This document shows positions 14,177-30,017 of a DNA stretch of 64,000 bases, one piece after another. The notes beneath the pieces are model-generated. The model was not told the origin of the DNA. It saw only the letters and a list, made by a program, of their open reading frames with translations, and made no database searches. This DNA is from Camelus dromedarius (taxonomy: Eukaryota): positions 54,004,001 to 54,068,000 of the forward strand of contig NC_087436.1 in NCBI RefSeq assembly GCF_036321535.1, in the 5' to 3' direction. Numbering within the stretch: the first letter of the stretch is position 1; each line of letters starts with the position of its first letter. The position numbers and the translations under genes were made by a program.

Positions 14177-14305
14177 CAAGTTCTGCTAAATTGCCAAATG
14201 CAACAAGACACATTTCTGTAAGAGCTGCATTTTGGCAGTGGATGCCCAGTAATTTAACTAAGGTAGGAATAACACCCATGTTGATAAGCTGAGCTTGAAG
14301 GGAAT
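14177..14305 (-). CDS. RAP1GDS1: RAP1GDS1 exon 6 (129 nt): DSLQAQLINMGVIPTLVKLLGIHCQNAALTEMCLVAFGNLAEL
   Basis: Acceptor ttttacag|AT, donor TTG|gtaagt; manually translated. Confidence 0.96.
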
Positions 14306-16148
14306 CTGTAAAAACAACAACAACAAAAGTGTTTATGTATTAAATGGACGTTAGTAAGAAGAAAATACCTCTTATTTTCCCTATTGCAAACTCAATACTA
14401 TTTCAATTACAATAAAGCAAGATTAAATCCAGTCATATAATTATCTTGAAAATGTTTTAAGACATTAGTTTAGAAGAGTTGAATTTTAAACCTTTTCAAT
14501 GATGAAAAAAATTTAGAAATGAAAATAATTCAAATAATATGTCAAAACATTTTTTTTAAATAAGGTCTTATAACTATATACAGTAGGCTTTAAAATGTAT
14601 AAATAATTAAATGTTAGCACTGGTTTTTAAGTTTAGAGGTTAGACAAAGTAACATTTACATTACAGGAAATCACAGAGTATATGAAAAGCATAAGGAAAA
14701 AAAGCAAGTTTAATAAAGACCAAGAGAGAAGATAAGAATCTTAGAATCCCTAAAATCCAGCTGCCTCATCATAATGGAAAAGTGCACAATACACACAAAT
14801 TACTGTTTACTTGTAGCAGAGGGTTCTTCGATGGCTGCTAGGACAGAAAGTAGCTTTAACAAGGAAAAAAATGGGTTATTTAAAATATTTTTCTTTGCAA
14901 AGTTCTATTTAAAATGACACTCATCTTAGTAAAGAAAGGAAAATTTGACTTCAGAGGTGAAGCAAACGAGGTCAACATGGCTTTGTTATCATCGCCTGCC
15001 TTCATATTCTAAGAAACTAATTGGTTTTAAACTACTCAGTATGCTTTGGCCTCCAAAATGGCTCTTCATGAACGATAACTGAATACCCATAGCAGAGTTG
15101 AAGGTAAGCAAACCTAAACTAAAACCAAAAGTATTGCCTCTCAGAAAAAGCTAAGAAGACAGAAATACATGTCTATGCAAAACACTATCACTATTAATAA
15201 CTGAGTCATCCAAAGATGTAGGAATGCTTTCAAAACTTTTCTTTTAAAATTTATGCAGTTTTCAAGCTAATAATTTTCTCCAAGTTCTTTTAAGTTACTT
15301 ATTGGGAATCTAAAGATAAAAATCTGTTTCTTATAAAACACATTTTCCTCATGGCATGCTTCCCTTGACAGAGCTGCCTACTAATCTCTTTACCACTCTT
15401 CATAGTTCTTAACCTATAGATAAGGAGGTGGCTGGGTGATTATCAGAAAGAACATAAAGGCAAGGTTAAGCTGTCTCACATGCCAACTGATTACTTGCCT
15501 GGTGGTCCTTGTTAATTTTTCCTGCTTTTAGAGTGAAGTATAAAAAGATAGACAACAGAGGCTTATTGGCCCTGAAAACTGATAATTACAGATATTATCT
15601 GGTTCAGTTGTGGGGGCCCATCTATACTAGAAAGGGGTCTATTACCAAAACAAGAATAGAAAACAGGTTGGATAAAAAGTAAAGTTTACATTTAGAGTTC
15701 AAATAGTCTAAAACAATTTCAAATTTTGCAATGGAATTATGAAGTCTGTCCTAAAAAGTGAGAGAAATCAAAGAATATAATATATTCAACTAAATGATTT
15801 GTTTTTATGCTTTTGATGTTAAACATCTTTTTCAAACTATACCCTTCAGTCATTAATGAATGATTTGCTATACTTAGAGGCAAATTACTTGTTAGACCTA
15901 TAGCATTATACCTGTTATAGTATTATACCTATGTGTTATATTGGCAGAATATTTGTATTATGGTTATAGTATTTTTAATGATCATGCACCAAGAAGCTTT
16001 CCAAGTGAAAAATTATTTTGATTACTTACCAGTAGAGTTCCTTATTATTGAATCACCTCTGCAGATCCTTGTTCTTTAGCAGTATTTTTAACTTTCATTT
16101 TTTAAATTTATTCATTTTGACTACCTCTTCAAATGCTGCAGAGCTGTT

Positions 16149-16259
16149 GAATCATTAAATTTCAGGTACGTAAGCGTGAGCACTAGCGCATGCATTGAGT
16201 GTGAGTCAAACTCCACTATATGTCTGCATATATGTAAGCATCACACACCCCCTCAGTAC
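16149..16259 (-). promoter_or_regulatory. Intronic element complementary to the candidate exon's 3' end and donor (partner 18219-18323)
   Basis: Several collinear blocks of inverted complementarity, e.g. caccccctcagt, agcgcatgc, aggta.gtaag. Confidence 0.55.
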
Positions 16260-17370: not shown

Positions 17371-18296
17371 CCAATGGATTACCTAACTTTTATAGGAATT
17401 GGAAAAAAACAAAACAAAACATAGAAAAGAGATTCTGAAAATCAATGATATGCTTGGCAGATGTGATAACAGAAAAAACTAAAATCAAAAAGCATGGTAG
17501 GAATCCTAGATTTTGGTTCTCAGATATTTCAAGCAAATTTAAGCACCTAAACATTTCATTTTGCTTATTTGAGTAAAAATTCTACTTAAGCTTAGGAGAA
17601 TATTCCATGATTAAATCTGTTGCTTATTTCATTACAACTTAGTATGTTATCAACAAATAGTTTTTTCAGGGGTTGAGTAGGGGTCTTGTTTGTGTGGAAT
17701 AAATTAGCATTAATTCTTATTGCTGGAAGCAAATGATTAAGTTTAATCACTTTTTCTTAATGCCCAAAGAAAACTGAATGGACTTCAAAGGGTAGTAGCT
17801 GACACTCATGCTATTATGAATGTTATCAGGAACATGACTTTAAAATCAAAGACTAACTGGAAGAAATTCTTAGAATCAGGAAGAGTTCACATTCTCTAGA
17901 TACATTTGAGAGAGTAAGTGACATAATGCAAGACTGAGACTTTTGCATCCTTCAGCAAGTACCAGCAACTCCAAGGGAATGTTTATCAGAGCTCAACAAA
18001 CACAATCCACAAAAAATGCAACCCAGGCCCATACAGAGCAAACACTTATGTGAGAAAGACAGTCTTGAGACAGCACAATGTCATAAACGTCTGAAGACTT
18101 TGAAAAACTGCTCCTGATGCACATCACAGACAAATACTGACCAAAATACAGAATTACAAAATTACATATCAAGATGACACAGGCCCTGCATGATCTATGG
18201 GGAGGAAGAGGAAGAAAGGCACTGAGGGGGTGCAATACAGATGCATATACAAAGAGATATAAGGCAATCAACGCATGCGCTGGTGTGAACACTTAC

Positions 18297-18368
18297 CTAC
18301 CTACATTTGAATTTCAATGGTTCCAAGTTCTTCAGGTCCCACTCATGGAAACTCCAAAGAATGGAGAT
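18297..18368 (-). other. Candidate poison (PTC-containing) cassette exon in intron 5
   Basis: tcttctctccag|ATCTCC...TGTAGGTAG|gtaagt; 72 nt; in phase 1 reads (D)LHSLEFP-TGA; no expression evidence available. Confidence 0.45.
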
Positions 18369-21300
18369 CTGGAGAGAAGATCTCAAGTTGAAGAACCTTT
18401 TTCCCCCTGAGTTTCAAGTTTAATGTTTAAAACATTGGTACAGATAGATCACAGGTCCAGAAAAATATGCCAAGAATTCCAGTAACTCAATTGAAGTTAT
18501 GTTGATCAACTACTAAAAAGAATAGGTTTCTTAAGATTATAACATGTTTATCTTATTCCTAAGAAAAGGCCCTCATACACAATGCTATAAGATTATTAAG
18601 CTTATTGGTAAATAGGACTTAATGATGAAACTGTGTCAAAACAATTCACAACACAGTCTCTACAGCAGTAATGTATATACGGTGTGTATATTATTCATAC
18701 TATAAAGAGCACAATATTTCTACTCACAGACTTGCATAAAAACCCCATCTACAGTCAAATAAACTATGTACAGTTGAAACAATAAAAACAAGCAGATATA
18801 AATCTTGATGAGAAGTTTTAATACAAACTGTATAAGGATCATCTGGGCATAATGAAGACTGAAGAAAATTACCCTTGTCTAATAGAACATCTATATTTCA
18901 AAAAACTATATAAAAATTAAAAATTAGAAAGGATGTAACAGTGAAGTAGAACTTGCAAGTTGAAGCAAGTTACAACTCTATTATAATGTTGAATAGCAAA
19001 CTGACTTAAATACAGCAACCAAGAGGATGGTTTGTGTTTAAAAACTCTATACATTCACACTGCAGATACAAGACTTCCTTTTCAGTTACTTAGTACCTTT
19101 TTGTTGACTCATCAGGAAAGTGAAGAATTTTTATTCTAAATCTAGTGCTGAACATAAGAAACTAAAAATATTTACAATTGTTTAAAATGAATTTACTTTG
19201 AAAGCCCTCTTTACACAAAATGTGCATTAGATGTTTTGCACCCAGATTACCCCTATAATTGACACCCCAGGTTATACATTTCAGTGACAAATAGCAATTT
19301 CAAAGGAAAATAAAGAGAATCAAGATTCATTAGTATCAAAAATATTGGAGGTCTAAAAACAATACTTTTTTTTTCTTTCTAAAAGTTAACAAAAAATGGA
19401 AAAGAGAGTTCAAAAGCTTTTCTGGGTTCTGAAAATAAGAGAGTCTCTGCAGAGCAAAATTTCCCTTCTGTAAAAGTTCTAGAGTTAAATGACAAAATTA
19501 CACGAGTGAGTATAATGTAAAAACAGCAACAACCAAAACCCCCTAAAGCAAGTCACAAGAGAAAACTCTTATTATTCATAAGAAGCTTATCCATTTACTA
19601 TTCTCAATCCAATGACATCCAGAATGATTATGTCCTAATCTAGTAGATAACTTTTTCCCTAGACTCGCTCCAGGTTAAATTATTTATTATAGATCAACTC
19701 TTGTTATAATAAATACTGCTACAAAGGTTTCACAGATACATCAACTCTGATTAAAGAAAACTCTAGGCTTTTATCGCAGAAAGAAACTGGTCTCTTACAG
19801 GTTAAAATTGGTTTTTTGTGGCCTTTTGTTTTTTGTGTTTTTTTAGAAGAGAACTACTGCCAGCTCTTGCTTAAGTAGCTCTTGTTGGGAGAAATAAACC
19901 CAGTCATGTGCCATTGCTGAGAGAAAGGCCACATCTACATATACATCTAAGTATAAATTTAAGGCCTGTATTTTTGTATAGTAAATTAAGCTAAATACCA
20001 GGTTAATTTACATGATAACATGTCTATCTTACAAACATGTGTTTAAAAACATAAAAATTTTTTGCTTTGCAAAAGGATTTACTGGCTTTAACAACAACCA
20101 AAAAACCCCACAAAACCAAAAACAAGCATTACTAGTTACCTGGGAACATTTCTATGATCAAGTTTTTATACTTTATAATTACATGGAAGTTATTTGCACC
20201 ACACAGACTGTGTTAACAGGAAATATCTACATAACCCAAAGATTTCTGATTTCTAGCCAGTAACAATTCTTAAAACATTATTTAATTAAATTTTTTTTCA
20301 GTAAATAAAATATAGGCAGTTTGTTAACAGAATTTTACTGGAAGTTAGAAAACTGGGTTACTAATTTTTATACAAGTTGATTACACATCATAGTTTTCTG
20401 CCCTGAATTTCTCTCTGAATGAGTATTTTAAGTGGCCTAAATTAAAGATACATTGATATTTGTCCAAAATCCATTATTTATCTATGGCTTTGGCCTTACC
20501 TCTTAAAGGCCAAACAACACCTGACTGCTCACTTCAATGTCATTTCTGGTACCTACAAACTTGTGCATAGGCAATAATCAGGTGTTTGATACCATCATAT
20601 TTCAACTGTTATAGTAACATCAATAATAAAAACAAGGTCTGGTCTTTCAGTTTTACTGTCACTATATGAATATTCATTTTCAAATATAGGTAAGCATTCC
20701 ACGTACAAAGTCTCCTGATGTGTTTCATATGTTGAAATTATATCAGCTGAAATATAAATGAATATTTATATTGCAATATTAAAATGTGGCAATAACTAAT
20801 GATGAAAGCTATACAAATGTAAAAATTAAATCAAGGCAGAATAATAGAGATTAGATTATCTATTCTCTTTAGAATTTACAATAAAAAATAAAATAAATGT
20901 TAGAAGCTGTTGTTGATTTTTAGTTATTTCATTCCATTCAGGCCATGACTGGTTCAACAAAAAGTCCAATTTAAGAATTCTTTACATCTTGTGAGGATGA
21001 GTTAAAATCAGAAAGCCAACTCTGCCACCTCAAATTTTCACTATAAGGAAAATCTCAAAAATAATATTCAATAACATCTATGATAGTTACCGTCAATCCA
21101 GACTAAAGCAAATAAAGAAAAACATGTTAGAGAATGAGGAACCCCAAACATACTTTGTTACTCCACTGCCTGCAGTTAAAATTTGTTATCTATTTAGTAT
21201 CACAATGCTAAATGCACTATTATGAAAGCAATCTAAAAGCTGAAAATGCTGCAAAAAGTATTATTTTTGTATTATAATGCCAAACTTTAAATCATTGACA

Positions 21301-27015: not shown

Positions 27016-27162
27016 CATTCTCATTGCTATAGTTCATCAGCATGCCACAAAAGACAGTCAAGAGCTTCTCATTGGCGGGATCTGTTATACTGCACAGTGA
27101 CCTTAAATGGTCAATTACAATCTGTGCACCACCTGCTTGGTCAACTGCACTTCTGCCCTCAT
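27016..27162 (-). CDS. RAP1GDS1: RAP1GDS1 exon 5 (147 nt, cassette exon; 607 vs 558 isoforms): HEGRSAVDQAGGAQIVIDHLRSLCSITDPANEKLLTVFCGMLMNYSNEN
   Basis: Acceptor ttttacag|AT, donor ATG|gtaaac; 49 codons equals the 607-558 difference; manually translated. Confidence 0.96.
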
Positions 27163-28493: not shown

Positions 28494-29920
28494 CACTTAT
28501 GTAGCAAGGCCTCGTAAATACGAGCTTCATAATTTTGAAAAATTTTAAGGAAATTCGTACTAAAATGAAACAAAATAGTTTTGTTCACTGAAGTTTTGCA
28601 CCATGTCCACTTAGCTTTTTTATACTGTTACATAGATGCAGAAGAGGACCCTATGCTAAGTAGCTAATGAGATGACACAAAATTCTTAAGTCCAGGGTAG
28701 CTAGTCAAATGAGCCAGCAAGTACACTGGTCAGATCTCATTTAACAACCTAATTTCTAAGGTTTTCTTTTCCAATAACATAAATGTAAACTGTTGGCAAT
28801 TTGCATGCGGATGATGTCAGATAAAACTAAATATTGGGATTACAAATCTGAATGTTCAGACCTTCAATACTATACATTTATAGTATATCCCATCCCTAAA
28901 TTGTAAAGCTCAAATAGTTTCTTATTCTAACTGCTGAGTAAATAAAGGCCTTTAAAATATAAATTGTGTATGCTTAGAAAGCTAAGTTTCCTGTCAACAC
29001 ACAGCTATTCAATATTCAAAAAATTAAATAATTCAATAAATTTAATAAAAACTTATTCAAAAACTATGTTCACCAAATTTATTAATGCAATAAATAAGAA
29101 CATAACTAAAATTGAAAGGCAAATTTCCTATTTGTGTTTCAGAGCCACAGTATTTTTCTTCCCTTCCTTTGCTTCCTTTCTTTCTTCTGTTCCCCCCTCC
29201 TGCCCTGCCCTGTTTAGACTGTCTACCACAATGCTATGTGTTACCAAGAGTTGGCTGCTGAGCATAAACTCAATCTCTACATTGGAAATTACATTATTAC
29301 CGAATCTGAGAAGAAAAGCAAGGCACATATAGCAATAGATACCTGAGTTGAAGAGAATTTTATTAAAATATTTTAAATAATCTGAAGGTGCAAAGAAATA
29401 AATGATGCTGTGTTCTTTTACTCTACTAAAACCAGTAAGTTTTTAAAGACATCTTACAAATTATTTAAAATACATATTAGAATATCTGTTAATGCACAAG
29501 TCCATATGAAATGTTTTTTCACAGTAAAGGTAGCTCTTTATAGCTTTATGTTTATGATAGTAAAATAACACTGTTTACTTAAAAATAATTTCTAAAAGGT
29601 TCCTTATCCTAAACTTTCATACCTCTAAATGTAGGCTCATTTTTAACACTTCTCATAATAAGTAACTTCTAACTTGTAAAGAATACTGAGTTGTCCCCTC
29701 TAGAAATATAATTTATACCTTTATTTTCCATAATTATGAGGTATGCAACCACTGGAGAAAGTGCAGCCCCACCAACTCTTTAAGCCCTGCTACCTACATT
29801 CTTTAATGATGGCCTGTCACAAAAAGTAGTTTCCAGTACAAGTATGATCTTTTTTCACACTAAGAGCAGAACTTTAAATCTAAAGAGATACTACTCTTCA
29901 ATAGCCAAAAGCAGGAAGCA

Positions 29921-30017
29921 GATGTCACAAAGGATTATTACTTCTGGTGGGAAATAAGTAGTTTGAGCAGATGGATGCATAAGGAAGGTCTTATTATTAT
30001 ACAAATAATTAGAGGGT
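29921..30017. repeat. Inverted repeat arm 1 (partner 30934-31034)
   Basis: 66 bp perfect reverse-complement match, then a 4-nt indel and 3 substitutions. Confidence 0.95.

Follow-up and report, generated by a model that had tools for sequence, protein, structure and literature searches.

The pre-mRNA elements that most resemble the locus described here fall into a few known groups. An mRNA whose premature termination codon (PTC) precedes later junctions by more than 50 nt is subject to EJC-dependent NMD, and exonisation of repeat-derived sequence, as in inverted Alu pairs, can be repressed by an inverted neighbouring copy of the repeat. Deep-intronic poison cassettes have been catalogued with a median length of 94 nt, as exons absent from reference annotation that are supported by split reads and conservation scores. 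The closest single cases are exon 5b of BRD3 and exon 3b of BRD2, described as small unannotated intronic exons with canonical sites that introduce a PTC on inclusion and are predicted to be repressed by long-range complementary regions, which flank the exon and loop it out (PMC10789245). Conservation of these regions is evident from phastCons, and experiments with antisense oligonucleotides and with compensatory mutants validated them.

RAP1GDS1 encodes SmgGDS, which governs the prenylation and activity of small GTPases. Splicing of this gene, as treated in PMC11171328, concerns skipping of exon 5, and the SmgGDS-607/558 ratio is presented there as a splice-switching target in cancer. A recessive RAP1GDS1 splice mutation that lowers the mRNA is reported to cause a developmental syndrome (PMC7318102).

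We analysed a window of the dromedary camel genome (the whole stretch of DNA examined, 64,000 nt) that holds a candidate poison exon in intron 5 of RAP1GDS1. Like the BRD2 and BRD3 exons it is small, unannotated and intronic, has canonical sites, carries a PTC and is accompanied by long-range complementarity predicted to be repressive. Unlike them, one of its complementary regions (arm A) overlaps the exon end and the donors instead of flanking the exon, the two regions originated by inverted copying and are now 73% identical, and their pairing is computed only. The candidate is similar in length to the catalogued deep-intronic cassettes and likewise absent from reference annotation, but is a candidate predicted from sequence, and the one supplement file searched from that catalogue has no entry for RAP1GDS1. 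With inverted Alu pairs it shares a donor that comes from one repeat copy and could be masked by the inverted copy; it differs in that the RAP1GDS1 repeat is a single pair in the window, about 73% identical and without a family match. A human catalogue that applies a threshold of 3% lists three NMD events for RAP1GDS1 (chr4:98296918-98296990, 98343139-98343319 and 98343320-98352475; PMC7347940), with which the candidate would share unproductive splicing in the same gene, but all three lie upstream of exon 4. It differs from the skipping of exon 5, which keeps the frame (PMC13078869, PMC11171328).

Results

The window spans exons 3-9 of RAP1GDS1 on the minus strand. Proteins named RAP1GDS1 matched the exon-5 peptide with identities as high as 100%, and the mapped exons, all of phase 1-1, spliced to an open frame; over 260 residues the window protein differed from that of the right whale at 4 positions and from that of sheep at 7, and the residues shared would put the animal among the hoofed mammals but not in the ruminants. 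Exon 5 (27016..27162, minus strand, 147 nt) corresponds to the SmgGDS-607/558 alternative exon, a role taken from the text of PMC11171328, and exon 6 (14177..14305, minus strand, 129 nt) follows after an intron of 12.7 kb, compared to 12.8 kb in human (coordinates in the PMC13078869 tables). The candidate lies 8.6 kb downstream of exon 5 and 4.0 kb upstream of exon 6, a distance at odds with the initial annotation, which had placed it next to the regulated exon. The upstream flank of exon 5 itself (27211-27164, minus strand) shares 15/15 translated residues with manatee, strong conservation of the kind expected of a regulated alternative exon.

An acceptor tcttctctccag| at 18368 and a donor TAG|gtaagt at 18297 bound a 72-nt exon on the minus strand (18297..18368), the main form of the candidate, supported by its splice motifs and by an orthologous peptide in a sheep gene model (P0087). 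Read from either exon 5 or exon 4 it translates as (D)LHSLEFP-TGA, with the TGA at 18343..18345 in the phase-1 frame; donor, acceptor, length and frame were all reproduced as originally annotated. The main 3' splice site (18369..18382, minus strand) has a short pyrimidine tract, an extra AG at -13 (18381) and an AG-exclusion zone of 11 nt compared to 21-77 nt in the real exons, and no YTNAY branch motif occurs within 70 nt of it, which bears out the two caveats (an AG about 13 nt upstream, no clear branch point) attached to it from the start. Three tandem donors (18291..18305, minus strand) give exon ends at 18305 (AAT|gtaggt), 18301 and 18297, with U1 pairing of -6.7, -11.8 and -12.4 kcal/mol, respectively. 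They overlap a TAG that is the in-frame stop of both the 110-nt form and the sheep-type frame.

A weak acceptor at 18406 (9/20 pyrimidines) adds an upstream extension (18369..18406, minus strand). Joined to donor 18297 it gives a 110-nt exon with TAG as its last codon, again as annotated, and joined to donor 18305 a 102-nt exon that is in frame and stop-free, although its acceptor is very poor. This 102-nt form is the sole open one among 18 acceptor/donor combinations; whether spliced from exon 4 or from exon 5, the other 17, which include every combination using acceptor 18368 in this genome, contain a premature stop, and on inclusion a later junction follows the PTC at a distance above 50 nt. 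The open frame of the candidate itself is no longer than 38 aa. The annotation's claim that every combination would end in a PTC or frameshift thus holds for 17/18. The candidate has the canonical AG/GT sites within the intron of a coding gene that a poison exon requires. We consider the chances roughly even that sheep, at least, share with the camel a minor cryptic cassette exon here, one that acts as a small NMD leak and is a poison exon in the camel.

The splice motifs and stop alone are near chance level, as they would be in a silent pseudo-exon that is never used, with the sheep model an artefact of ab initio prediction, which would have settled on the one frame that is open. Of random 72-nt segments 80% contain an in-frame stop, the donor 8-mer AGGTAAGT has two occurrences per strand compared to 1.4 expected, and the local fold of the exon was no better than that of shuffled sequences (z -0.12). 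The main acceptor, already marked by its AG at -13 and missing branch motif, scored at the low end of the real acceptors, and 98 of 4139 intronic AGs scored at least as high. The donor was rarer, with only 2 of 3420 intronic GTs reaching its matrix score, and its U1 pairing was stronger than that of all seven real donors. As a pair the candidate ranked sixth among the intronic acceptor/donor pairs in the window, where 95 intronic donors have a partner such that both scores are at least those of the weakest real site; the weight matrix is crude and serves ranking only.

Part of 18240-18460 was present in 23 of the 24 sequencing runs listed. For the organism that matched best, runs of RNA or probably of RNA contained a share of 0.82-1.0 of 22 sampled words, with exon and flanks present together, which indicates coverage of pre-mRNA or DNA, not splicing. 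Shares of 0.50-0.82 in runs of three other organisms were not used as evidence of conservation.

The published catalogues place unproductive splicing elsewhere in the gene. Human intron 5 (98379163-98391951 by the coordinates in PMC13078869) houses none of the three catalogued NMD events, and for RAP1GDS1 the tables for mouse and human brain and for cycloheximide-treated human neurons show only frame-preserving exon-5 skipping among the matches listed from eight supplement files (PMC13078869). Three further catalogue supplements hold no RAP1GDS1 entry. An NMD exon in intron 5 is absent from the human and mouse catalogues searched (PMC7347940, PMC13078869, in the tables covered), and its absence from five catalogue supplements is what a pseudo-exon would predict. 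No description of it was found in the RAP1GDS1 literature searched, although bioRxiv supplements, VastDB or current GENCODE/Ensembl may list it. Two reported events were set aside: the ADAR-dependent RAP1GDS1 acceptor of PMC5991522 is a different event, its primers, as given, pointing to the start of the coding sequence, and the RAP1GDS1-L1PA2 chimera concerns intron 2.

The sheep gene model argues that the candidate is more than chance motifs. P0087 (KAI4572531.1, KAI4585794.1; models MJG53_006028 and MJT46_005599), an automated model from an argali x domestic sheep hybrid, carries 22 aa inserted between exons 5 and 6, with an acceptor and phase identical to those of the candidate, and the protein is recorded from two assemblies. 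Two blocks of the insert match the candidate at 7/7 and 11/11 full codons. It is 2 nt longer mid-exon, has a Cys codon in place of the TGA and ends at the 18305-type donor, which is the weakest of the three and the sole frame-preserving one, the choice that an ab initio artefact would make. The early TGA is thus missing in the sheep form, while a later stop persists: in the sheep-type sequence the first donor would yield an open 66-nt exon, and use of the later donors, provided that they are retained, would either shift the frame or end the exon on a stop.

P0087 was the one carrier of the insert among the 120 listed of 196 exon-5-peptide matches, which included no RefSeq isoform with the insert, and a query with the insert region gave no second full-length carrier among the 120 listed of 155 matches; the reindeer, deer, cattle and yak models among the matches listed lack it. 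When all 28 shorter candidates (28/28) were examined, one carrier (P0159) was found, the tail of which has the form seen in sheep and then continues with C-R-end, like the window sequence over its tandem donors. P0159, an ENA entry, is a bacterial ECF-type membrane protein ORF on a 1092-nt contig; the contig is a chimeric assembly, and the last 22 residues are mammalian intron-derived sequence. Degenerate-motif scans for orthologous DNA found 0 loci in metagenome contigs, viral contigs and prokaryote genomes, the lone bacterial match (L001) being a chance match.

The form found in sheep and P0159 leaves 20 of about 22 codons as they are in the camel, and over 260 residues of coding sequence camel and sheep differ at 7 amino acids. 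The probability of at most 2/22 changed codons is 0.16, 0.08 and 0.03 at neutral divergences of 10, 12 and 15%, which are assumed values, and the test counts two altered middle codons; this is no more than suggestive of conservation of the exon. As the two matching blocks lie in different reading frames in the camel window, their identity cannot reflect selection on one protein. We infer that P0087 was produced by the project of PMC9528982, whose annotation, according to that report, gave weights of 10:1:5 to evidence from transcripts, ab initio prediction and homology. With transcript evidence weighted 10 times ab initio prediction, an extra exon would survive more easily with transcript support, and such support behind the P0087 insert is plausible. 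The sheep gene model and the inverted repeat described below lift the candidate above a pseudo-exon, a reading that we regard as rather unlikely.

Arm A (18221..18335, minus strand) of an old inverted repeat takes in the exon's 3' half together with all donors and some 75 nt of the intron beyond them. In the pre-mRNA it is complementary to arm B (16136..16257, minus strand), about 2 kb downstream. The two arms are identical at 80/109 aligned bases (73%; nhmmer E 2.8e-7). Their predicted duplex reaches -105.1 kcal/mol compared to -69.1 for the next best among 905 windows, and in a computed fold of the whole 2380-nt span 74/115 bases of arm A pair with arm B, donors included, so that stable long-range complementarity over the exon is found computationally. 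The donor motif has a counterpart in arm B, which indicates that the donors largely came with the repeat.

Arm A has one inverted partner only within 64 kb. None of 17 frames between and around the arms reached the Pfam cut-off, Rfam gave 0 matches in the window, and metagenome contigs contained no further copies of the repeat, which may derive either from decayed transposon ends or from a local inverted duplication. The stretch at about 17370-16925, between the arms, has the look of what we take to be a Charlie1-type hAT DNA transposon. A younger inverted duplication is present in intron 4 (29881-30017 / 31075-30934; copies 93% identical over 101 nt and separated by about 1.1 kb), and such pairs thus arise here without known function.

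A conserved regulated poison exon, in which the duplex would act as a BRD2/BRD3-type switch, with inclusion and thereby total SmgGDS tuned by Pol II speed, helicases or ADAR, appears improbable to us. The duplex does span all three donors, the poison outcome would be retained in the sheep-type frame through a different stop if the strong donor were used, other NMD events are listed in the same gene (PMC7347940), and the BRD2 and BRD3 exons, as described, provide a precedent (PMC10789245). The duplex itself, however, carries no sign of selection for pairing, as either G-U bias or strand asymmetry: transitions within it are G-U and A-C in a ratio of 10:5 (p=0.30), and the antisense duplex is as stable as the sense one (-105.6 and -105.1, respectively). 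The similarly spaced inverted duplication at 29.9/31.0 kb and the absence of the exon from the human and mouse NMD lists also weigh against a switch. Of the AS-NMD switch originally proposed, the exon-like status is upheld by the sheep model and by the PTC in all forms using 18368, but regulation is unsupported; a regulated step in SmgGDS dosage fits poorly with the absence of the PTC codon in sheep, the distance to exon 5 and the location of the catalogued human and mouse events elsewhere.

That the stretch is a coding mini-exon of restricted lineage (66 nt, adding 22 aa between ARM repeats), open in sheep and disabled in the camel by the 2-nt difference and the TGA, is very unlikely. The in-frame, stop-free sheep model and its amino-acid identity in two blocks speak for it, but the model comes from a single annotation project, has no counterpart in the listed models of the other ruminants named above and matches this genome in two different frames, and use of the stronger donors nearby would either break the frame or bring in a stop.

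Discussion

A minor cryptic cassette exon in intron 5, leaking a small share of transcripts into NMD, remains our preferred explanation of these observations. The 3' half of the exon and its donors would have derived from one arm of the old inverted repeat. Exon 5 (or 4) would occasionally be joined to 18368, and 18297 or 18301 to exon 6, and the resulting PTC-containing mRNAs would be degraded. The weak acceptor would hold inclusion at a trace to a few percent, and once arm B is transcribed the duplex would probably compete with U1 for the donors. The outcome would be a small, mostly unregulated leak rather than a dosage switch.

A more elaborate history can be drawn from the same elements, in which the old inverted duplication made both a poison exon and, 2 kb downstream, its own antisense repressor, giving a switch of total SmgGDS sensitive to transcription speed across hoofed mammals, from which the 2-nt change in sheep lets one form escape decay with 22 additional residues between ARM repeats. 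We find this combination harder still to credit than the regulated switch.

Other inserts occur in the same region of orthologous proteins. In RefSeq isoforms of macaque and baboon (P0046, P0049, P0050), exon 5 is followed by an unrelated-looking insert of 11 aa, which resembles the window at about 22650-22615 (minus strand) in intron 5, where the matching AG and GT appear absent. A third insert, about 25 aa long, separates exons 5 and 6 in turtle isoforms (P0069, P0070, P0073-P0076). Gain of exons in single lineages seems to come easily to intron 5.

At the start of intron 3 (59619-59527, minus strand), a read-through translation is identical to a manatee gene model at 28/31 aa, and an NMD-inducing extension of exon 3 is among the human catalogue entries (PMC7347940). 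This is probably a better-supported conserved AS-NMD event in RAP1GDS1 than the candidate of intron 5.

If the exon of intron 5 were only a trace leak or silent, it would be an ordinary exon-like stretch. If it is used, its unproductive splicing, being downstream of exon 5, would hit both SmgGDS isoforms and, should the human gene have the exon (roughly at chr4:98,387,800-98,387,960 in hg38 if the introns are collinear), would offer an antisense handle on total SmgGDS dosage. The locus would then also be a clean case of an exon and its repressor born together from one inverted duplication.
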